Below, piece by piece: positions 3,231 to 54,046 of a DNA stretch of 64,000 nt. Made by a program: the position numbers and the translations under genes. Every line of letters starts with the position of its first letter. The first letter of the stretch is position 1. Source of the DNA: a virus; UHGV virus genome UHGV-0212524. The stretch is one strand, 5' to 3'. The notes under the pieces are model-generated. The model did no database searches and was not told where the DNA came from. It saw only the letters and a program-made list of their open reading frames with translations.

Positions 3231-3604
3231 TGCGTATCTGGACGCTACAACTCGCTAAGTGGCGGTTAGCTAAGCAGAAAGGATTTCACGCGGTGGATAT
3301 CACCGTGAAGTCAGGTCGAAAGGAACTCGCCCCCGACTGGGATTTCCTAATGGCGTATAAATCTTCTGTCAAGGACGCTGCCGCTGAACGTGAGTACACG
3401 ATAAAGTATTTGTACAAACTCGAACGACTGTTAGATACTGATGCCGAAGTTTTAGTGTCGTTACTCAGACACGATGACTTGGTTTTGATGTGTTATTGTC
3501 CCGCAGGTAAGTTTTGTCATCGACACTTACTGGCGAACAAACTTCAAGAAGTGGGAATGATGTTTGGTATCGACGTTGTGTTGTGTGGAGAATTAACCGA
3601 ATAA
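3230..3604 (+). CDS. hypothetical protein with Cys/His cluster
   Basis: 124 aa; CYCPAGKFCHRH near C-terminus suggests metal binding; terminator follows. Confidence 0.5.
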   Translation: MRIWTLQLAKWRLAKQKGFHAVDITVKSGRKELAPDWDFLMAYKSSVKDAAAEREYTIKYLYKLERLLDTDAEVLVSLLRHDDLVLMCYCPAGKFCHRHLLANKLQEVGMMFGIDVVLCGELTE

Positions 3605-3730: not shown

Positions 3731-4294
3731 GTGGCCACACCATACGTACCTGATTTGAGTCTGACCTCAGCAGAGCTAGTGGTCGCTTTAATCAATCACG
3801 ATAATGGGTTACAGCTTACGCTAAACGAAATACGTATTAGCGGGACCGTAACAAACTCATCTCCAACAACTTCGCGTCGTAACACCATTACCGAAATCAG
3901 TAAAATCAGAAAACCAGATGGTGCGTCTGTTGTGGTTTATTACGACAGACTCGACGCAGATGAAGTATTAACGTATGAACCCATTCTGATTTCGTTAGAC
4001 GGTACTGAAGACAACGTTCGTGACATTCTTAGTGTTGTAAATGAATTCTGCGGAACGAACTTACAACCCGAGGATTTACGTGCTTCAGATATCACTTTAG
4101 GTAACGATCCCATTTCCGTTAACGTTGCCGACGATTCTCCTGCGTGGATGAACGCGTTTATGGTGACGTTGTTTGATACAACCGAACGGGCATTAGCAAA
4201 CGAAGAAGATGCAATCTTCTGTATTGGTGACAATGCCGTTCTTACATTCGAGGTTACAGATGGCGACAGCACTGAAGAAGACGAGACTCCATGA
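3731..4294 (+). CDS. hypothetical protein, PDLSLTS paralog family (upstream flank of adhesin module)
   Basis: 187 aa; N-terminus ...PDLSLTSAELVVALINHD... and YYDRL / CGTNLQPEDL segments paralogous to 13858..14370. Confidence 0.6.
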   Translation: MATPYVPDLSLTSAELVVALINHDNGLQLTLNEIRISGTVTNSSPTTSRRNTITEISKIRKPDGASVVVYYDRLDADEVLTYEPILISLDGTEDNVRDILSVVNEFCGTNLQPEDLRASDITLGNDPISVNVADDSPAWMNAFMVTLFDTTERALANEEDAIFCIGDNAVLTFEVTDGDSTEEDETP

Positions 4295-7805: not shown

Positions 7806-10800
7806 ATGGCTAAAGCGGTAAAGAAAATTCGTTTACACGATTTACGTCCATACACCGGGGATATAGGTGAAGGTGTTTTACTTTTTTCCAAGGATGAGAA
7901 AGATTATAAGTTACCTGTCCGTGAGATCGTTGCAGATATTGACACCGTACGTAATGCGGTGTCTGATGCACAAACAGCAGCAACACAATCACAAGAAGCT
8001 GCAACTCAGGCTACACAAGCAAAGAATTTAGCAGAAACAGCAAAACAACAAACTGACACCGTTGCGGCTACAGTTGCTCAACAAGCGCAAACTGTAACCG
8101 AAAAAGCAACTGAAGTCGGTACAAAACACACTGAAGTGTTAGCCGCGAAAACGGCGGTAGATACCCAGGTTGTGTCCGTTAATGAGAAAGCGCAAGCGGT
8201 AGCGGCAAGCGAGGCCAACGTCACACAAGCGGTGACTACCGTTACGAAGAAAGCAGAAACTGTTGCCACACAAGCCGGTCAAGTCGAACAGTCGCTTACG
8301 GCAGTTAACGAAGCTGTCGCGTCGGTAGAGTCGTCAAAAGCCGCTGTAGAAGCTACAGCAACGCAAGTTACCACAGACAAAGAAACCGCAGAGAATGCGG
8401 CAACGCGTTCTGAGGCAGCGGCTAAGCGTGCAGAAGAAATCGCTGCAAAAGGTAACGTTGATGCAACAACGACCAGTAAAGGTATCGTTAGACTTAATAA
8501 TACCTTAAGCAGTGACTCTGTTACTGAAGCGGCTACGCCGTCAACGGTTAAGCAGTTAAATGAAGATTTGCAGTTAAAAGCAAACCGTCACAACCCAACT
8601 TTTACCGGTGTGGTAAAAGCACCAACACCTGCTTCGGATTCTAACGACACGAGCGTCTCAACGACCGCATGGGTACGGCAAGCGATTGCTGAATTAGTGG
8701 ACTCTTCACCCGAGACGTTAGATACGTTATCAGAAATTGCAGCTGCGTTAGGAAACGATCCTAACTTTGCGACAACGATGACGAACCAACTCGCGGGTAA
8801 ACAGCCGTTAAGTCCGTTACTGACAGCGATTGCCGCAGTCACCACCGCTGCAAACAAACTCCCTTACTTTACCGGTAGTAATCAGGTAGGGTTAGCGGAT
8901 TTCACCTCGACTGCGCGTGATTTGTTAGCGAAAGGGTCGACGGCAGATATCATTAACTTCCTGGGTTTGAAAACCACTGTTGATAAAGCTGCGGGTGCTA
9001 TGCAACGCAGTTCTAACGGTGCCGATATTCCAGATAAAGTCACCTTCGCGAAGAACATCGGGTTGTCAGCAGAGACGTATTTGAAGTTTAATGGGGAAAT
9101 GGCAGTAGATGCGGATATCAACACCTTCGGCCCAGTCGAAGCGTTTATGGGTGTCTGGTCTAAAGCCACGTCTACGAATGCAACAATTGCAAAGAACTTC
9201 CCGGAAGACGATGCAGTTGGTTACTTAGAGGTATTCAAAGCAGGTAACTACAGCGGAAGCCAACGTTTTACCATACGTAACGGTAACGTCTATACTCGTC
9301 GTTTAACAGGAACCTGGAACGGTACTAACGGCCCTTGGTCGCCCTGGAGAATGACAACTACCGCGAACCGTCCGCTCTCCACCACTATTGACCTTAACAC
9401 TTTAGGTGGTGTTGAACACATGGGTCAGTGGCGTAACTCCAGTTCTTCTCTTGCGACGTTCGATCGTCATTATCCCGAAGAAGGTGGTAATGCTCAAGGT
9501 GTATTAGAAGTAATGGAAGGTGGTCTCTACGGACGTATGCAACGTTACACCACTCGTCGTGGTACGATGTATGTCCGTGGGTTGACTGCGACTTGGGATG
9601 CGTCTAATCCACAGTGGGAAGATTGGATTCAAGTTGGGTATCAGGTAGACGGTGCCTACTATAAGGGTAGCTTTAATGACTTAACTAAACCTGGTCGTTT
9701 TAGTGTTACCGGTGAGGCTACTGACGGTCCGTTAACAGACTCTGCTGGCGCAACCTTGTTAGGTGTTTGCGAAGTTACCTTACGCTTAGACGGTTCAGGC
9801 GTTGAACAAAATTATACCACATACGGTACAGGCGCAACTACGAAAGGTCGCAAGTTCCAACGAATTCGTACAGGAAACGCCTGGAGCGAATGGCGAGAGA
9901 TTTTCACATCCTATTCACTCCCGTTGGCTTTAGGGATCGGTGGGGTTGCTGCCAAGGTCGATCCGTTAGACTGGCAAACCTTCGATTTCGTTCCTGGCCA
10001 GATGATAAGTACACCGTTGAATACCATGAAAAACATTCCTGCGGGAATGGATTGGGGTGTTATTGACGGTAACTTGGTCAGTATTCTCGTAGGGGCGTCA
10101 GAGGACACCGGTACTGGTCGGAGTATGTTGGTCTGGCGCGGTACAGTGTCTACTGCTAACTATCGCTTCTTTGCAGTACGTATCGCTGGCGAGAAGGGTA
10201 GCCGTACGATTACGCCACGACAGATGCCTGTGTTGAACGCAGCCCACACTTGGGCAGAGAAACAGACCTTTGCAAAAGGGTTAGCAGGTGAGTTAACCGG
10301 CAATGCTTCAACCGCCACTAAGCTCCAGACTGCGCGTAGAATTGGCGGGGTCGCTTTCGACGGCAGCGGCGACGTTAACCTCCCAGGTGTTAACCAACAA
10401 GGTAATCAAAACACCACAGGTAACGCCGCGACAGCCACTAAACTTCAAACCGCCAGAAATATTAACGGTGTGAAATTCGATGGCTCTGGAGACATCAATA
10501 TCAACACCTTGGTAGGTCGTGGACGGGTTACCGCTCTGACCGGGTCGAACAAGGGTACACCTGGTATCCAGATGTACGAAGTTTACAATAACGGTTATCC
10601 AACCGCCTATGGTAACTTGCTGCACTTAGGTGGTGCTAATGCGCTAGGCGAAGGTGAGTTGTTAATTGGTTGGTCGGGCACGAGTGGTGCACACGCACCC
10701 GTTTATATTCGTAGTCGACGCGATACGGCTGATGCGCCGTGGTCAGATTGGGCACAAGTTTATACTGCCCGTGACAGTATTCCTGGTGTAAATACCACCG

Positions 10801-12272
10801 GTAATCAGGATACTACTGGCAATGCCGCTACCGCGACGAAACTGAAAACCGCTCGCAGAATCGGCGGCGTTACCTTTGACGGTACTGGGGATATCAATTT
10901 ACCGGGGGTTAACCAGCAAGGCAACCAGAATACGACAGGTAATGCAGCGACCGCTACTAAGTTACAAACAGCACGTAAGATCGGCGGTGTTAACTTTGAC
11001 GGTTCGCAAGACATTAGTCTGCCCGGTGTAAACCAGACGGGTAATCAGTCGACTACCGGAAACGCAGCCACGGCAACAAAGTTGCAGACAGCGCGTACCA
11101 TTAACGGTATCGCATTTGACGGTACTAGAAATATATCGTTAGGGCCTGCCGATATAGGTTGTCCGGCTTCGCCCACTGGTTGGTTGGAGACTGGTAAAGA
11201 CGGCGGCGCAATAACTACAGCACAGCTAGTGACGTTATTGCAAAATAACGGCGCGTTTACCACAAAATCATGGGTTGCTCGCTGTGCATGGGCTTATGCT
11301 GCTAGTGCGTCCATACCGAACAGCGAGACGGGTTGTGGTGTTATTCCGTTAGCTGGGGCTGTTATAGAAGTGATTAGTAACAGCGCAAACAACTACACGA
11401 TCCGTATAACGACCCCCACAACGACGAGCGTCGGCGGCGCACTCACTAATGCGGAGTTTATCTACGTAAATAACGGTGATGCTTACTCACCAGGTTGGCG
11501 TCGCGCTTACAATACGAAAAACAAGCCAACTGCTGCGGATGTTGGGGCGTTGCCATTATCTGGCGGTCAATTGAATGGTGTGCTGACGCTGCAAAATGTG
11601 AGTCAGCCTCTCAAGACGCCGGGTGGCGGCATTCTGGCAAATGATGGAAATTTATACATCAATAAGTCAGGATTTGCAGGCTGGATTGATGCGCTGTTTT
11701 TGAAGAACAGCGGCGGTACTGTCACTGGCGATTTAACGGTTAACGGTAAACTGGTTACGAAGTATGCTGATTTCCGAATCGCTTACGGTAGCTGCGGTTT
11801 CATTTTACGTAATGATGGTGCCAATACCTATTTCTTAGTAACCGACTCCGGACAAGCCGCAACGGGTTCCTGGAACGGACTACGTCCGTTGTATTTTAAT
11901 AACTCTAACGGTCAAGTAACCTTTGGTCATAACATTTCTAGCAACGGTAACGGTTCGTTTAACGACGTACAGATTCGTTCTGACCGTCGCAACAAACGTA
12001 ATCTGGTGAAGCTGGATAAGGCTTTGGATCGGTTAGAAGCGCTTACCGGCTATCTGTACGAGGTTCAACATCCAGACGACGGTTGGAACACTTCGGTAGG
12101 TCTAATTGCTCAAGACGCATTAGAAGCGTTACCTGAACTTGTGTCTGAGGATGATGATGCCATTTCAGGCGAAAAACGTTTACGTCTAAACTACAATGGC
12201 GTTATTGCGCTGTTAGTAGAGGGTATGAAAGCGTTGCGTCAAGAGGTTAACGAAATTAAAGGAAGATCCTAA
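7806..12272 (+). CDS. long tail fiber protein with C-terminal intramolecular chaperone (peptidase S74-like) domain
   Basis: 1488 aa; A/T/Q-rich shaft; five tandem ~40-aa fibre repeats (TGNAATATKLQTAR.IGGV.FDGSGD); C-terminal SDRRNK (Ser-Lys dyad spacing) + LDKALDRLEAL. Confidence 0.85.
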   Translation: MAKAVKKIRLHDLRPYTGDIGEGVLLFSKDEKDYKLPVREIVADIDTVRNAVSDAQTAATQSQEAATQATQAKNLAETAKQQTDTVAATVAQQAQTVTEKATEVGTKHTEVLAAKTAVDTQVVSVNEKAQAVAASEANVTQAVTTVTKKAETVATQAGQVEQSLTAVNEAVASVESSKAAVEATATQVTTDKETAENAATRSEAAAKRAEEIAAKGNVDATTTSKGIVRLNNTLSSDSVTEAATPSTVKQLNEDLQLKANRHNPTFTGVVKAPTPASDSNDTSVSTTAWVRQAIAELVDSSPETLDTLSEIAAALGNDPNFATTMTNQLAGKQPLSPLLTAIAAVTTAANKLPYFTGSNQVGLADFTSTARDLLAKGSTADIINFLGLKTTVDKAAGAMQRSSNGADIPDKVTFAKNIGLSAETYLKFNGEMAVDADINTFGPVEAFMGVWSKATSTNATIAKNFPEDDAVGYLEVFKAGNYSGSQRFTIRNGNVYTRRLTGTWNGTNGPWSPWRMTTTANRPLSTTIDLNTLGGVEHMGQWRNSSSSLATFDRHYPEEGGNAQGVLEVMEGGLYGRMQRYTTRRGTMYVRGLTATWDASNPQWEDWIQVGYQVDGAYYKGSFNDLTKPGRFSVTGEATDGPLTDSAGATLLGVCEVTLRLDGSGVEQNYTTYGTGATTKGRKFQRIRTGNAWSEWREIFTSYSLPLALGIGGVAAKVDPLDWQTFDFVPGQMISTPLNTMKNIPAGMDWGVIDGNLVSILVGASEDTGTGRSMLVWRGTVSTANYRFFAVRIAGEKGSRTITPRQMPVLNAAHTWAEKQTFAKGLAGELTGNASTATKLQTARRIGGVAFDGSGDVNLPGVNQQGNQNTTGNAATATKLQTARNINGVKFDGSGDININTLVGRGRVTALTGSNKGTPGIQMYEVYNNGYPTAYGNLLHLGGANALGEGELLIGWSGTSGAHAPVYIRSRRDTADAPWSDWAQVYTARDSIPGVNTTGNQDTTGNAATATKLKTARRIGGVTFDGTGDINLPGVNQQGNQNTTGNAATATKLQTARKIGGVNFDGSQDISLPGVNQTGNQSTTGNAATATKLQTARTINGIAFDGTRNISLGPADIGCPASPTGWLETGKDGGAITTAQLVTLLQNNGAFTTKSWVARCAWAYAASASIPNSETGCGVIPLAGAVIEVISNSANNYTIRITTPTTTSVGGALTNAEFIYVNNGDAYSPGWRRAYNTKNKPTAADVGALPLSGGQLNGVLTLQNVSQPLKTPGGGILANDGNLYINKSGFAGWIDALFLKNSGGTVTGDLTVNGKLVTKYADFRIAYGSCGFILRNDGANTYFLVTDSGQAATGSWNGLRPLYFNNSNGQVTFGHNISSNGNGSFNDVQIRSDRRNKRNLVKLDKALDRLEALTGYLYEVQHPDDGWNTSVGLIAQDALEALPELVSEDDDAISGEKRLRLNYNGVIALLVEGMKALRQEVNEIKGRS
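10296..11160 (+). repeat. in-frame tandem coding repeats (phage tail-fibre repeat units) inside the long tail fiber gene
   Basis: Five degenerate ~120-nt units each encoding TGNAATATKL(Q/K)TAR.I(G/N)G(V/I).FDG(S/T)(G/Q/R)(D/N). Confidence 0.8.
11982..12269 (+). other. predicted autoproteolytic intramolecular chaperone domain (C-terminal 96 aa of tail fiber)
   Basis: Begins at D following Ser in IRS|DRRNK; Ser...Lys spacing of 5 as in S74 chaperone domains; location read from sequence. Confidence 0.6.
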
Positions 12273-13054
12273 TGGCAGTTGTCGGCGTAGGTGGTTGGAT
12301 TGGTTCTTCAGCAAAAGCTGAAACTGGTAACGATTGGATGTCTGGCGCGATGCGCACACTTGGTGTGCCGGTTCCAGGCTGGATGTCGCAATTGGCGGGA
12401 AAATCAAAAGAGGTTCAGTATTCGATCGGGGCTAATCACAATTACAATAAAGATACGCTTATTAACTATTTACGTTCTATAGGCTCTAATGCTGTCGTTG
12501 TGACCATTACAGGGGATTTAGTGTCTTATAGTAGCGGGGTTCCTTGTTTAGAATTCCCTAGCAATCTTCCAAATTCGTATATTACACTCATCATCAATCC
12601 TGGGGTTACAGTATACGGCAGAGGAGGCAACGGCGGTTCTAACTCACCAGGCGGTGCAGGTGGAACCGCAATACAGAACGGAATAGGAAACAGACTGCGT
12701 ATAACCAACCGTGGCGCTATTGCCGGAGGCGGTGGCGGCGGTGGCGGCGGTAACAGGGGTAGACTAATATTTGGTGGTGGCGGTGGTCGCCCATTCGGTG
12801 CTGGTGGGTCTTCCTCACATATGAGTTCCGGTGCAGCTGCTGGTACTATTTCCGCTCCTGGTAGAGGATCTGTTGGTGAGGGGTCTCTTAGTGCATATAC
12901 AGGCGGTTCGGGTGGTAATGTCGGTGCTGCTGGAGGAAGATGTAATACTCATGGTAACGGTACAGAATATAACGGCGGAGCCGCTGGTGCAGCCGTTAGA
13001 GGTAATGCGCCAAGATGGGACGCAGTAGGTGCAATATATGGTTCACGTGTTTAA
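12272..13054 (+). CDS. 38: tail fiber tip adhesin, gp38-like (T2/S16 type) with glycine-rich motifs
   Basis: 260 aa; N-terminus MAVVGVGGWIGSSAKAETGNDWMS and ITGDLVSYS as recalled for T2-type gp38; C-terminal half has multiple poly-Gly motifs. Confidence 0.7.
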   Translation: MAVVGVGGWIGSSAKAETGNDWMSGAMRTLGVPVPGWMSQLAGKSKEVQYSIGANHNYNKDTLINYLRSIGSNAVVVTITGDLVSYSSGVPCLEFPSNLPNSYITLIINPGVTVYGRGGNGGSNSPGGAGGTAIQNGIGNRLRITNRGAIAGGGGGGGGGNRGRLIFGGGGGRPFGAGGSSSHMSSGAAAGTISAPGRGSVGEGSLSAYTGGSGGNVGAAGGRCNTHGNGTEYNGGAAGAAVRGNAPRWDAVGAIYGSRV

Positions 13055-13114
13055 TTTGAAAAAGTATGGGGATACTCACTCCCCTCCTCACACCTTTCAA
13101 AAGGATAGGGTATA

Positions 13115-13618
13115 ATGGGGGTAGCATCTGGATGGGTCGGTTCTTCGGCCAAGAACGAAACGGGCGAACAATGGATGAGTGCTGCTGGTAGTAAATTAGG
13201 ATTGGGTAGACCTTTTATGATGAGTCAAATGGTGGGCCGATCTCTTGGCTGTAAAATCGCAACTGCTGCATATAGCGATTCAATGGCTAAATTTTGGGGT
13301 GCGGTGGGACCAAACTGGCCGTTAGCGCAGAAAAATAAAGGGACTATTCAGAATCCTGGTAGCTGCGGCGTAGGCACACTTATTGGTATCCAACTACTAT
13401 TGATCACATTGGCTGCTGATGCAAAACCAAGTTTAGCGGTCTATTTACAAGGTGGGAGAGCTTCTAACATCACCGTAAATCTAGGCGGCAACACTTGTAC
13501 GGTAGCCTATCAGCAGGTTATTAATGGTCAACATTATTACTGGACCTCTAACATTAGCACTGCTTTCCAAAACGTGATGAAATCAACCGGCACATTAAGA
13601 GATTTGAAGATTAGTTAA
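13115..13618 (+). CDS. gp38 N-domain paralog with unrelated, non-glycine-rich C-terminal domain
   Basis: 167 aa; N-terminus MGVASGWVGSSAKNETGEQWMSAAG parallels 12272..13054; C-terminal half lacks Gly-rich motifs. Confidence 0.6.
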   Translation: MGVASGWVGSSAKNETGEQWMSAAGSKLGLGRPFMMSQMVGRSLGCKIATAAYSDSMAKFWGAVGPNWPLAQKNKGTIQNPGSCGVGTLIGIQLLLITLAADAKPSLAVYLQGGRASNITVNLGGNTCTVAYQQVINGQHYYWTSNISTAFQNVMKSTGTLRDLKIS

Positions 13619-13639
13619 TAATTTTCAAGCGAATGTGCT

Positions 13640-13900
13640 TGAAAACGTAATCGGGGGGGGGGGTGAAATGTTTTTAGCCACCATTTTATGTCTCCCCAAG
13701 CATAGGAGGTAACCATACGTGGAACATTTCACGCCTGTTTGGGCGTTAACTTAAGTAAAAAACGATCACTCGAATCTGCTATAAAAAGCAATCGGGGGGT
13801 GGTGAAATGTTTATAGACAACTTTTTATGTCTCTCCAATCATAGGAGGTAACCATACGTGGAACAATTCACGCCTGATTTGTCGTTAACTTCACTTAACA
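13640..13900 (+). repeat. ~110-bp tandem duplication (two diverged copies) ahead of 13858..14370, with homopolymeric G tracts
   Basis: 13651..13757 and 13791..13897 align (ATCGGGGGG..GTGAAATGTTT..CATAGGAGGTAACCATACGTGGAAC..); first copy has G11 run and a start remnant that terminates after 11 codons. Confidence 0.8.
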
Positions 13901-14370
13901 TGGTTATTTCACTGGTTAACCATGACCTCCAGCTCGACCTGCAAGAGAACGAGGTTGAAGTCAGCGACGTAAAGACCAGTAACGAAATGGATCGTGACAC
14001 CACTGCTGTTGTAAAGATAAAACGTCCTGGTAACAGAACGTTACAAATCTATTACAACCGTTTAACCGCAGAGCGGTGGTTAAACCAGCAACCTATTCTG
14101 GTAAAGGTTTCCGGTAATGGTTTTACCGCACACGATCTAATCGACGGAATTAACGCGGCTTGCGGTTGTAATTTACAACCCGACGATCTTACCGACGAAT
14201 CATTTACCGTAGGGAAAGACGCTGTAACGTTACAGGTTTCACCCAACTCGTTAGGTTATAAAGGCCAATTCTCCGTTCTGGTTTTCGGTAACGACGAAGA
14301 AGCCGCTGTAGTAAAAGACAACGATTTAATCGTTACCGCAGATAATCGCGTCTTAACCTTTGGTGGTTAA
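13858..14370 (+). CDS. hypothetical protein, PDLSLTS paralog family (downstream flank of adhesin module)
   Basis: 170 aa; GTG start with AGGAGG RBS; N-terminus and YYNRL / CGCNLQPDDL paralogous to 3731..4294. Confidence 0.6.
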   Translation: MEQFTPDLSLTSLNMVISLVNHDLQLDLQENEVEVSDVKTSNEMDRDTTAVVKIKRPGNRTLQIYYNRLTAERWLNQQPILVKVSGNGFTAHDLIDGINAACGCNLQPDDLTDESFTVGKDAVTLQVSPNSLGYKGQFSVLVFGNDEEAAVVKDNDLIVTADNRVLTFGG

Positions 14371-14529
14371 TAGTGGCTGAACTGGTAGGAAAGGTACGCA
14401 TTCGCGAGCTACCGACACTTTCAGAAGACATCACTGGTGTGGTGGTGTTAGCGTCTATTGCCTGTTAAGATCGTTATTACGCATCTTACAGGGACAACGC
14501 TTTCTCAGAACGGAATGAAATAAATATTA

Positions 14530-14573
14530 GGTAGTAGGGGCTAAGCCCCTACTACCTTTCTTTTTTATTTTTT
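14530..14573 (+). terminator. rho-independent terminator
   Basis: GTAGTAGGGG-CTAA-GCCCCTACTAC hairpin + TTTCTTTTTTATTTTTT. Confidence 0.75.
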
Positions 14574-14574
14574 C

Positions 14575-14619
14575 TCAGATATATATTACCTAGGGGAGAG
14601 CGAAATTTACATTCGCTCT
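14575..14619 (+). promoter_or_regulatory. conserved promoter-like motif with stem-loop (copy 1 of 4)
   Basis: TCAGATATATATTACCTAGG followed by inverted repeat AGAGCGAA..TTCGCTCT; directly after a terminator. Confidence 0.5.
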
Positions 14620-14744
14620 ATTAGTTATAGCCGAAAGGAGGATTAGTTCTATCACCCGTATTATCTGTTCTGGTGAATTGGGTGAAGATAAAAAATCGTG
14701 TTTGATAAATTAGTTGAAGACTACGTTAAGAAAGAGGGACAATT

Positions 14745-18193: not shown

Positions 18194-18255
18194 TCAGATA
18201 TATATTACCTAGGTGAGAGTTCAGCTACTCTCACTTAACTAAAACCATTTTAGGA
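18194..18255 (+). promoter_or_regulatory. conserved promoter-like motif + stem-loop + conserved 5'UTR/RBS (copy 2 of 4)
   Basis: TCAGATATATATTACCTAGG + GTGAGAGT..ACTCTCAC + CTTAACTAAAACCATTTTAGGAG immediately before ATG 18265. Confidence 0.55.
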
Positions 18256-25843: not shown

Positions 25844-26380
25844 ATGGCTAAAACCTTCAAACTGCAGTTCGTCGAAGCTGTAATTGCTAAAAACCCAGGA
25901 ACCGCTTCTAATCTGACGGTTGATGATGTCGATTTTGGTGCTGTCGAAGCGCACAGCGGTACCGGTGGTCGTAACACCAAAATTACGCTGACCGCCAAGG
26001 CAGAAAGCCAGAACTTCAAAGGCGAGAAAGAATTCCACTACATTCGTCTGGCTTCTCAAGACCTGATCGGTGCCAAAGCTTACGAAAAAGCCGGTAGCCT
26101 CGATCTGGAAAACTCTGCCATTGTAACCAAACTGAACGAAGAAATGGTTACTAAAGGTTATGTCGATGACTATTTCGCTGAAAGCGAACTGACCATTGAG
26201 AAAACTGACGGGGATAGTGGTGCTAAAGTTTACACTGTCAAAGTAAACGATGCACACATTAAATTCCTGGCTGGTACTATTGCCACCTTCACTTATTCCA
26301 ACCCAGCTCCTGAGAAGGTAGCGCTGAGCGGTCTGGAAGGTGAACTTGATGGCTTCACTGCACCGGGTGTCGGTGGCTAA
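25844..26380 (+). CDS. hypothetical protein, LDGFTA paralog family
   Basis: 178 aa; NTKITLTA..NFKGEKEFHYIRL and C-terminal GELDGFTA shared with 26450..26980. Confidence 0.6.
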   Translation: MAKTFKLQFVEAVIAKNPGTASNLTVDDVDFGAVEAHSGTGGRNTKITLTAKAESQNFKGEKEFHYIRLASQDLIGAKAYEKAGSLDLENSAIVTKLNEEMVTKGYVDDYFAESELTIEKTDGDSGAKVYTVKVNDAHIKFLAGTIATFTYSNPAPEKVALSGLEGELDGFTAPGVGG

Positions 26381-26389
26381 GTAAGTTAA

Positions 26390-26422
26390 ATCGGGGGGGG
26401 TGACCTCCCCCGATATTTCTCT
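26390..26422 (+). terminator. hairpin terminator with G-run stem
   Basis: ATCGGGGGGGG-TGACC-TCCCCCGAT between the two LDGFTA paralogs. Confidence 0.55.
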
Positions 26423-26449: not shown

Positions 26450-26980
26450 ATGGCCGCTACTAACCAGATGATGTTGGTCGCGCTTTATAATGCTGCTAAC
26501 GCTGAGCTACCGCATCAGATTACAGATAAAGAAGTGTCCTTTGGTCTCCCTACTGCGCTGGAAGGCGAAAGTAAGAATACCAAAGTTACCATGACCGCAC
26601 TACCGGGTTCTGAGAATTTCAAAGGCGAAATCGAACTGCATTACGATCGTCTGGAGCCGGGTGTTGTAGGACGGATTGAACTAACTGACGATCTGTCTCG
26701 TTGGGTTCAAGAAAATGAACTCCGCGCTTGGTTACAGCTATACATCAACAAAGTAAAACCTGACGACGCTATCGCGCCAGGTGACGTTGTGTACAGCACC
26801 GAAGACCAGAAAGACGAACATGAAAACGTCACTCTGCGTACCGTGACATGCACCGTTACTGAACAGAACCTCCGTTATAAACCGGGTGTAATGGCAACTT
26901 TCGTAATTACACCGAAGGTAGTCGATAATCGTATTGACCTGGCCACCACCGACGGTGAATTGGACGGTTTTACTGCTTAA
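26450..26980 (+). CDS. hypothetical protein, LDGFTA paralog family
   Basis: 176 aa; NTKVTMTA..NFKGEIELHYDRL and C-terminal DGELDGFTA. Confidence 0.6.
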   Translation: MAATNQMMLVALYNAANAELPHQITDKEVSFGLPTALEGESKNTKVTMTALPGSENFKGEIELHYDRLEPGVVGRIELTDDLSRWVQENELRAWLQLYINKVKPDDAIAPGDVVYSTEDQKDEHENVTLRTVTCTVTEQNLRYKPGVMATFVITPKVVDNRIDLATTDGELDGFTA

Positions 26981-50372: not shown

Positions 50373-50400
50373 TAGGTCGTTCCTTAGATCGGAAATGAAT

Positions 50401-50453
50401 TCAGATATATTTTACTTAAGTGAATAGGGGCTGAACTCGCACTTCAGCCCCTA
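50401..50453 (+). promoter_or_regulatory. conserved promoter-like motif with downstream stem-loop (copy 3 of 4, diverged)
   Basis: TCAGATATATTTTACTTAAG + hairpin TAGGGGCTGAA..TTCAGCCCCTA; ~50 nt upstream of small ORF 50505..50582. Confidence 0.45.
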
Positions 50454-53984: not shown

Positions 53985-54046
53985 TCAGATATATATTACT
54001 TAGGTGAGAGTACAAAAGCTCTCACTTAACTAAAACCATTTTAGGA
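53985..54046 (+). promoter_or_regulatory. conserved promoter-like motif + stem-loop + conserved 5'UTR/RBS (copy 4 of 4)
   Basis: TCAGATATATATTACTTAGG + GTGAGAG..CTCTCAC + CTTAACTAAAACCATTTTAGGAG before ATG 54056; near-identical to copy 2. Confidence 0.55.

Follow-up and report, generated by a model that had tools for sequence, protein, structure and literature searches.

Results and Discussion

Tandem duplication of a virion-protein gene leader

This study concerns a stretch of 64,000 nucleotides (nt) of the virus genome UHGV-0212524 (hereafter the window) in which the leader and start of a gene for a DUF7941 virion structural protein are present twice in tandem, and in particular a stem-loop that the leader RNA is predicted to form from a long run of G. 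A repeat search of the window returned a direct repeat of 105 nt (13655-13759 against 13794-13898; 87% identity, spacing 139 nt) with a weaker upstream extension of 49 nt (13613-13661 against 13754-13802; 73% identity, spacing 141). The duplication is made up of two abutting head-to-tail units of ~140 base pairs (bp) each, with a period of 139-141 bp (13613-13753 and 13754-13897) and a mean column identity of 89% when aligned with MAFFT. Each unit comprises an intergenic leader, a ribosome-binding site (RBS), and the GTG start with some 12 opening codons of the DUF7941 gene; the duplicated stretch runs from the stop codon of the preceding adhesin gene to about codon 12. The features of the repeat are as follows.

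13613-13753, plus strand: repeat copy 1, with the adhesin stop codon, leader, RBS, GTG and an 11-codon remnant (repeat search, alignment)
13705-13709, plus strand: copy-1 RBS, GGAGG (sequence)
13719-13754, plus strand: remnant open reading frame (ORF), MEHFTPVWALT followed by a stop, the truncated 5′ end of the DUF7941 gene (sequence; compare MEQFTPDLSLT of 13858-14370)
13754-13897, plus strand: repeat copy 2, with a degenerate leader followed by an intact RBS and GTG and the real gene's opening 13 codons (repeat search, alignment)
13844-13848, plus strand: copy-2 RBS, GGAGG (sequence)
13858-14370, plus strand: DUF7941 virion structural protein gene, 170 amino acids (aa), GTG start (Pfam PF25613, 61.7 bits; phrog_2935/1037, 'virion structural protein')

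The length and identity of the repeat far exceed chance, confirming that the tandem duplication is real, and since the copies differ at ~13% of positions they do not represent an identical repeat collapsed or expanded by assembly. An initial annotation of this DNA had described a tandem duplication of ~110 bp; the duplication holds, and the size fits only its well-kept core. The remainder of that description was borne out: copy 2 supplies the RBS and the GTG at 13858 that opens the 170-aa ORF, and copy 1 carries an RBS and a GTG start at 13719 in front of a frame of 11 sense codons (GTG GAA CAT TTC ACG CCT GTT TGG GCG TTA ACT) closed by TAA at 13752-13754. The run of 11 G also lies in copy 1 as described, at 13653-13663; its counterpart in copy 2 is G6 (13794-13799) followed by TGG. 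By our own estimate, the chance of a G11 or C11 run anywhere in 64 kb at 46% G+C is about 0.01.

A single copy of the unit is present in all of the ~40 related loci of ~222-kb phages that we compared (drawn from RefSeq plasmids, IMG/VR, metagenomes and Sequence Read Archive assemblies, and cited below by L numbers), including contigs that encode an identical 170-aa protein. An exact search of the viral contig collection with the duplication junction found no match, and a search of phage, plasmid and Escherichia coli collections for near-identical DNA found two 222-kb 'plasmid' records, both single-copy and matching from the second copy onward only. Judged from these comparisons, the duplication is private to this genome. 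It likely arose when illegitimate or unequal recombination took place at this junction, which is highly mosaic in the clade, and it is probably a neutral remnant of that process, with erosion under way in the downstream copy. As a recombination scar the duplication is ordinary, and the leader element caught up in it is the more interesting object.

A conserved stem-loop in the leader

Within the leader (site 1), the following elements were recognized.

13622-13645, plus strand: hairpin H1 (TTTTCAAGC / GAATGT / GCTTGAAAA) just past the adhesin stop codon, destroyed in copy 2 (sequence)
13649-13652, plus strand: AATC directly before the G run (comparison of relatives)
13653-13663, plus strand: G11 tract, the 5′ arm of the stem-loop base (sequence, fold)
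13655-13697, plus strand: copy-1 stem-loop (G run + UGAAAUG / CAUUUUA + UGUCUCCCC), −18.8 kcal/mol (fold; match of covariance model R1 at 13649-13721, 88 bits)
13794-13836, plus strand: copy-2 stem-loop, weakened (G6TGG...), −11.3 kcal/mol (fold; R1 match at 13790-13860, 84.6 bits)

Fold predictions show the G tract as the 5′ arm of a conserved plus-strand RNA stem-loop, the stem of which ends 7-8 nt before the GGAGG of the RBS in every variant. In single-copy relatives the loop UUUAGCC separates G(n)-UGAAAUGUU from its pairing partner AACAUUUUA-YGUCUCCCC, the two arms giving a stem of about 19-20 bp, and the hairpin is predicted in 31 of the 31 distinct leader variants. Single-copy leaders of class A have energies of −21.6 to −23.1 kcal/mol; for the leader of L002 the z score is −3.9, and none of 200 shuffled sequences folds as well. 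The class-A fold reaches ~−22 kcal/mol on the plus strand as against ~−11 on the reverse strand, where G.U pairs become C.A, and this asymmetry suggests that the active form is most likely plus-strand RNA, in the sense of the genes. The stem holds 17 pairs and one internal mismatch in class A and 12-15 pairs in classes B and C, to be set beside the ~20 bp (about two helical turns) of largely unbroken double-stranded RNA of an RNase III site. Moreover, 91.7% of the cells in the alignment pair, compared with 59-64% when the partners are slid, and pair 18-46 is seen as G.U, G-C and A-U.

The architecture persists where the sequence does not. Other lineages have other stems, namely GGGGGAUAAAAU/AUUUUAUCCCCC (a perfect 12 bp) and GGAGGGGGU.../...ACCCCCU, and chimeric leaders with arms of two classes still pair (a B-type 5′ arm with an A-type 3′ arm in L024, the reverse in L028). 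Lineages with an interrupted or short run (GGAGGGGG, GGGGGA) retain the hairpin as well. What is conserved is the structure and not hypermutability.

Upstream of the stem-loop, H1 is retained in class-1 relatives, with a two-sided change from CAAGC/GCTTG to CAAAC/GTTTG in L016, and AATC precedes the run at site 1 in all relatives but one. We also observed an AT-rich block, AATWATTTTY, 25-27 nt upstream of the G run in three unrelated intergenic classes (window 13617-13626; L001 and L002 at ~5975; L031 at ~610). The block is not enriched in the window (3 matches, 1.5 expected). A closing helix ACGUA/UACGU around the start codon, which appears in some folds, is not conserved and was set aside. 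An Rfam scan of 13000-14600 at an expectation value (E) of at most 10 gave chance-level matches only, the best overlapping one (a snoRNA model) scoring 18.6 bits against a threshold of 45. Model R1, run over the window and eight loci, gave no further convincing match, the next best scoring 17 bits; the SPN3US and Asesino loci had none.

A second G-run hairpin

A hairpin of the same design lies elsewhere in the window, between two further genes of the DUF7941 family, and holds the one other long G run that the window has.

26390-26414, plus strand: site 2, an AUC-G8-UGAC-CUCCCCC-GAU hairpin between two DUF7941 paralogues, with G8 at 26393-26400 (sequence, comparison)
26450-26980, plus strand: DUF7941 paralogue downstream of site 2, the other paralogue being 25844-26380 (Pfam PF25613, 35.8 and 31.5 bits; phrog_4862)

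In a complete relative of 221,873 bp, the site-1 leader and the site-2 orthologue are the only two runs of at least 7 G or C. Both sites have the form AATC-Gn-TRA...CUCCCC and each stands ahead of a DUF7941 paralogue; the paralogues downstream of the two sites show no BLASTP similarity to each other. The G run of site 2 has 8, 9, 10, 11 and 10 residues in five genomes, four of which have AATC before it, and the element is absent from a sixth. That the design recurs suggests that the hairpin is a specific signal and not there by chance. The element can thus be described as a conserved RNA stem with a hypervariable G-homopolymer arm, found at two places in a 222-kb genome, both before members of one virion-protein family.

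Unequal decay of the two copies

The duplication provides a natural experiment on the leader. Copy 2 has five substitutions that occur in 0 of 27 relatives, all within the hairpin, as against two such substitutions counted in copy 1; the one private substitution in the stem-loop of copy 1 enlarges the loop. H1, AATC, the G run and the stem-loop are all retained in copy 1; copy 2 lacks H1 and reads CAATC for TAATC, and there the AATWATTTTY block has degenerated to AAGTAAAAAAC. The block from RBS to start differs between the copies at only 1 of 28 positions. The downstream copy is keeping only what translation needs, the RBS and GTG, and otherwise decaying, and the upstream half of the leader (AT block, H1, AATC and stem-loop) is kept only in the copy far from the gene. 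Local control of the RBS should conserve the copy next to the intact gene and the opposite is seen; the pattern counts against a local RBS switch and points, though it is suggestive only, to a role at the level of the transcript, in its start, end or stability. The message in this genome probably has a leader ~140 nt longer, with an 11-codon upstream ORF.

Candidate function of the leader element

Our reading, a tentative one held at somewhat less than even confidence, is that the stem-loop may act in cis at a transcript boundary, as a promoter-proximal 5′ leader of the messenger RNA (mRNA) for DUF7941 (and for the tailspike that follows it in relatives), protecting or insulating the message. 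The element is tied to position: the same H1, AATC and G6 hairpin stands ahead of a different, longer gene in L007, and it is absent from L014, where DUF7941 follows another gene. (In L007 the DUF7941 domain forms the C-terminal 170 aa of a 644-aa protein.) Elsewhere in the window early-promoter-like motifs TCAGATATATATTACYTAGG directly precede hairpins. Late promoters of the phiKZ type are known only as a TATG overlapping the start site (PMC7598289), and a site at 13065 consists of TATG with a G-started GGGA...UCCCC hairpin, fitting the phiKZ late-promoter rule of a start at G.

Two observations concern these promoter-like motifs themselves. The motif TCAGATATAT(A/T)TTACYTAGG occurs at window positions ~14572-14592, 18195-18215, 50400-50420 and 53995-54015, each time followed by a short hairpin and an RBS; it can be likened to the AT-rich early-promoter motifs of phiKZ-type phages, and the genes from 14745 on would then form an early block. 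The TATG followed by GGGAUACUCACUCCCC at 13065-13085, upstream of the gp38 N-domain adhesin gene, is conserved in L001 and absent from L002.

5′-terminal stem-loops of this general kind stabilize mRNA in the E. coli ompA leader and in the phi10 leader of phage T7 (GGGAGACC...GGUUUCCC). As in those leaders, the fold is strand-specific and a G-started stem pairs with a C-rich arm a few nt before a strong RBS. Unlike them, the present stem is longer (~19 bp) and has a homopolymer G arm; the polymerase would be a phage multisubunit enzyme. In attenuation at Bacillus subtilis pyrG, reiterative transcription adds 5′ G residues in response to cytidine triphosphate, and these pair with a C/U-rich terminator arm. 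There too a G run pairs with a C/U-rich strand and G.U is tolerated, but in our case the G residues are encoded in the genome and no alternative between terminator and antiterminator is evident. The element is a variant of known leader hairpins and of homopolymer hypervariability in phage host-recognition modules, and its novelty is modest.

Several points weigh against a promoter-proximal leader. Its placement near a promoter is inferred, by analogy with the other hairpins of the window. A phiKZ-type TATG late promoter at the G run itself was tried and rejected, for AATC and not TAT precedes the run and the TATG in the 3′ arm is not conserved (TACG, TGCG). AATC is itself missing at site 1 of L031, and site 2 of L055 reads GAACC. 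The copy-1 hairpin, at −18.8 kcal/mol and z = −1.9, is somewhat weakened, and the asymmetry of decay is seen in one genome, with small numbers. At site 2 a U-rich stretch, AUAUUUCUCU, comes after the hairpin, which looks more terminator-like. Finally, a strict covariation test found no two-sided change relative to the commonest pair, and shuffled alignments scored equally, in a set of closely related sequences from which the structure had itself been derived; what supports the hairpin is therefore its energy, its strand asymmetry and its persistence across divergent stems, and not statistical covariation.

Two other local mechanisms were considered and rejected. For a sigma-70 promoter with the G run as its spacer, L005 offers TTGAAA-17-TGAAAT, but the spacing elsewhere is 14-20, and phages of this type do not depend on the host polymerase. 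In addition, a promoter scan at the tract found no −35/−10 hexamers 16-18 bp apart bracketing the G run. Sequestration of the RBS by the CUCCCC arm is at odds with the energetic dominance of the long stem, with its end 7-8 nt before GGAGG and with decay in the copy next to the RBS.

The main rival of the 5′-leader reading is that the stem-loop is an attenuator or 3′-end element that ends or protects the upstream tail-fibre and adhesin transcripts and does not serve the downstream gene, whether by termination or partial termination, as a block to exonucleases or by terminating a short RNA derived from the untranslated 5′ region (5′-UTR). We regard this as possible, on the unlikely side. In a complete relative G+C-rich terminators make up most of the intergenic hairpins, the U-rich AUAUUUCUCU follows site 2, the element stays with the gp38 N-domain gene when the downstream gene changes (L007), and the intact copy is the one that adjoins the upstream gene. 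In the jumbo phage 201phi2-1 canonical intrinsic terminators account for only 52 of 132 mapped termination sites, and 5′-UTR-derived short RNAs were found, one of them upstream of a tail gene (PMC11512511). A small structured RNA, derived from a 5′-UTR upstream of gp182, a phiKZ tail gene (gp277 in 201phi2-1), is defined by premature termination (PMC11512511). By description it resembles our element, each being a conserved structure in the leader of a gene for a tail or virion component in a jumbo phage of the phiKZ type. On the other side, the site-1 hairpin is stable and contains G+C, but no U tract follows it in any variant (AAUCAUAGGAGG, AACCGUAGGAGG, UACCGUAGGGAG); in the window AAGCAUAGGAGG comes after the stem, and scanning for terminators did not pick out the hairpin. 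The 7-8 nt spacing to the RBS is conserved, and a strong canonical terminator already closes the module.

14529-14557, plus strand: canonical intrinsic terminator with a 13-bp stem and T run, closing the module (repeat search, terminator scan)

Length variation of the G tract

In class A the G run has 8-13 residues or is broken by a single interrupting base, and pairs of contigs with 0 mismatches differ in the G run only: L023 and L025 over 2573 nt (G11 and G10), L039 and L040 over 1444 nt (G9 and G11), and L032 and L035 over 1911 nt (G8 and G9). Such differences agree with the initial annotation in calling the tract prone to slippage, with the qualification that homopolymer lengths in assemblies are error-prone and that some of the differences may be assembly error; from the sequences, the tract would be either slippage-prone or hard to sequence. 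The suspicion of a sequencing artefact applies at most to the exact count of 11. The tract itself is found in every class-A relative, complete RefSeq records included.

Each added G improves the predicted energy of the stem until the run has 9, matching the pyrimidine arm YGUCUCCCC in length; between 9 and 14 the energy does not change, and below 9 the fold is weaker. Predicted RBS accessibility is constant from 9 to 11 G. The run may slide along the pyrimidine arm, with G pairing to C and to U, and slippage at 9 or more would then be structurally silent; we propose that length drifts freely because slippage that keeps the run at 9 or more has no structural consequence. About one third of lineages have a stable G5 or an interrupted run and keep the hairpin. 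The length of the tract is hypervariable, and neither the observations nor the predictions make a switch of it. The suggestion that it modulates downstream expression is therefore unsupported, the tract being a hairpin arm of constant predicted stability from 9 to 14 G.

It has nevertheless to be asked whether the tract is a contingency locus, that is, a selected reversible switch that tunes or toggles DUF7941, and the tailspike in relatives, and so diversifies host recognition. We consider this unlikely. Hypermutable homopolymer contingency loci are documented in phages, namely the coliphages T2 and T4 (PMC12633550). Like such loci, the window has homopolymers of at least ~7-8 nt (G11 at site 1; G8 at 26393-26400) with length polymorphism between near-identical genomes, the long run lies in a host-recognition module, and the tailspike of relatives is frame-switched. 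The run is the sole difference between otherwise identical contigs, it ranges over 8-13 at site 1 and 8-11 at site 2, the only two such runs of at least 7 in the 222-kb genome, and coding poly-G tracts that switch frame occur in the same module of relatives (the SASA tailspike; the adhesin start in L010). Unlike phage contingency loci, the tract in the window is intergenic, outside any ORF, and is the arm of a helix whose fold is insensitive to length at 9 G or more. Hairpins with G5 or interrupted runs, error-prone homopolymer calls and the lack of a consistent promoter spacing across relatives also argue against a switch.

Poly-G contingency loci are also a feature of the receptor-binding genes of Campylobacter phages. 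Promoter-spacer poly-G/C phase variation is known at Neisseria porA and opc and at Bordetella fim, which likewise have an intergenic G run upstream of a surface or structural gene. Here, by contrast, no consistent −35/−10 pair brackets the tract (spacers of 14-20), and phiKZ-like phages rely for transcription on polymerases of their own and not on the host enzyme (PMC7598289). The broader proposal, that both AATC-Gn-TRA...CUCCCC hairpins are a dedicated, hypermutable control signal of the clade and, with the poly-G tracts inside neighbouring adhesin and tailspike genes of relatives, make up one contingency system varying which accessory receptor-binding proteins the virion carries, seems to us somewhat less likely still. 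Should tract length matter, the range of phage contingency loci would grow to take in phiKZ-like jumbo phages of Enterobacteriaceae, as well as control regions that are non-coding, and the tract would offer a handle on the poorly understood start and end of late transcripts in these phages.

The coding tracts of relatives are of interest in their own right. In L032-L035 (~1650-1672) and L017 (~3455-3476), the gene behind DUF7941 encodes a SASA-esterase tailspike and has a poly-G run close to its 5′ end. With G7 or G10 the frame of ~708 aa is intact, and with G9 or G11 it shifts to an early stop, in genomes that differ by 0-4 substitutions per 1.9 kb; judged from these sequences, the tract has the look of classic phase variation affecting a jumbo-phage receptor-binding protein. 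In the gp38 N-domain adhesin gene, an ATG followed by a G run is in frame in L005 (G8, at 2398) and L044 (G11, at 95) and out of frame in L010 (G9, at 1896). L016 has a G10 just upstream of the adhesin start (1883), and the window has ATG with G4 only, at 13115-13121.

The two remaining explanations do without an RNA function. It is improbable that the conserved block is a DNA-level linker, a patch of homology for the exchange of adhesin cassettes of which hairpin and duplication are by-products. Similarity to relatives does break exactly at AATCGG, the hairpins of L024 and L028 are chimeric, segment identities are strongly mosaic and the duplication is itself a product of recombination; but pairing is retained in the chimeras and in stems of differing sequence, G.U pairs make the fold strand-specific, and the same design recurs at an unrelated site ahead of a very divergent paralogue. 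That the duplication or the G11 is an assembly or sequencing error is very improbable, for although several platforms miscall long G homopolymers and the duplication is seen in this sequence only, the ~13% divergence and the different flanks are unlike mis-assembly of identical repeats, and the orthologous tract in all class-A relatives comes from many independent sources.

Genomic setting

The source of the window is a ~222-kb jumbo phage related to phiKZ and SPN3US; the baseplate protein shares 73% identity with its counterpart in Erwinia phage phiEaH2 and 64% with those of SPN3US-type phages. The closest relatives at the DNA level are circular 222-kb 'plasmids' of E. coli and Enterobacter. 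NZ_CP173450.1 and NZ_CP134650.1 (L001, L002 and L047-L051), which were entered as circular plasmids of 222 kb from E. coli and Enterobacter ludwigii, are actually phiKZ/SPN3US-like phage genomes, and nearly all genes in these records are annotated as hypothetical.

The leader lies in a host-recognition module with the order tail fibre of 1488 aa (7806-12272), gp38 adhesin (12272-13054), gp38 N-domain protein (13115-13618), repeat and DUF7941 gene (13858-14370). Two further features of the module are listed here.

13115-13618, plus strand: second gp38-type adhesin, with the Gp38 N-terminal domain and a different C-terminus (Pfam PF21721 Gp38_N, 72 bits; phrog_1121 tail fiber adhesin, E 7.7e-46)
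14373-14468, plus strand: 31-aa stub of a tailspike N-terminus (50% identity over 28 aa to the tailspike N-terminus of L033; gene order in relatives)

The two adhesin genes in tandem (12272-13054 and 13115-13618) have one type of N-terminal, fibre-binding gp38 domain in common; the first product has the glycine-rich receptor loops of gp38 and the second another C-terminal domain. Alleles of the second gene (167 and 170 aa) are exchanged among relatives. In many relatives a tailspike of 706-731 aa directly follows the DUF7941 gene; in the present lineage it has been deleted, leaving ~370 nt of non-coding DNA (14371-14744).

The DUF7941 protein has 48 homologues, on contigs of ~220-226 kb. It has no match in Pseudomonas phages at E ≤ 1e-3, and a search of its profile against solved structures gave a weak match to PHIKZ127 only (E 0.26). 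Four DUF7941 paralogues are present in the window (3731-4294, 13858-14370, 25844-26380 and 26450-26980), the first of which holds the position of SPN3US gp144, ahead of a 'tail fiber protein' and a tail protein of 1001 aa.

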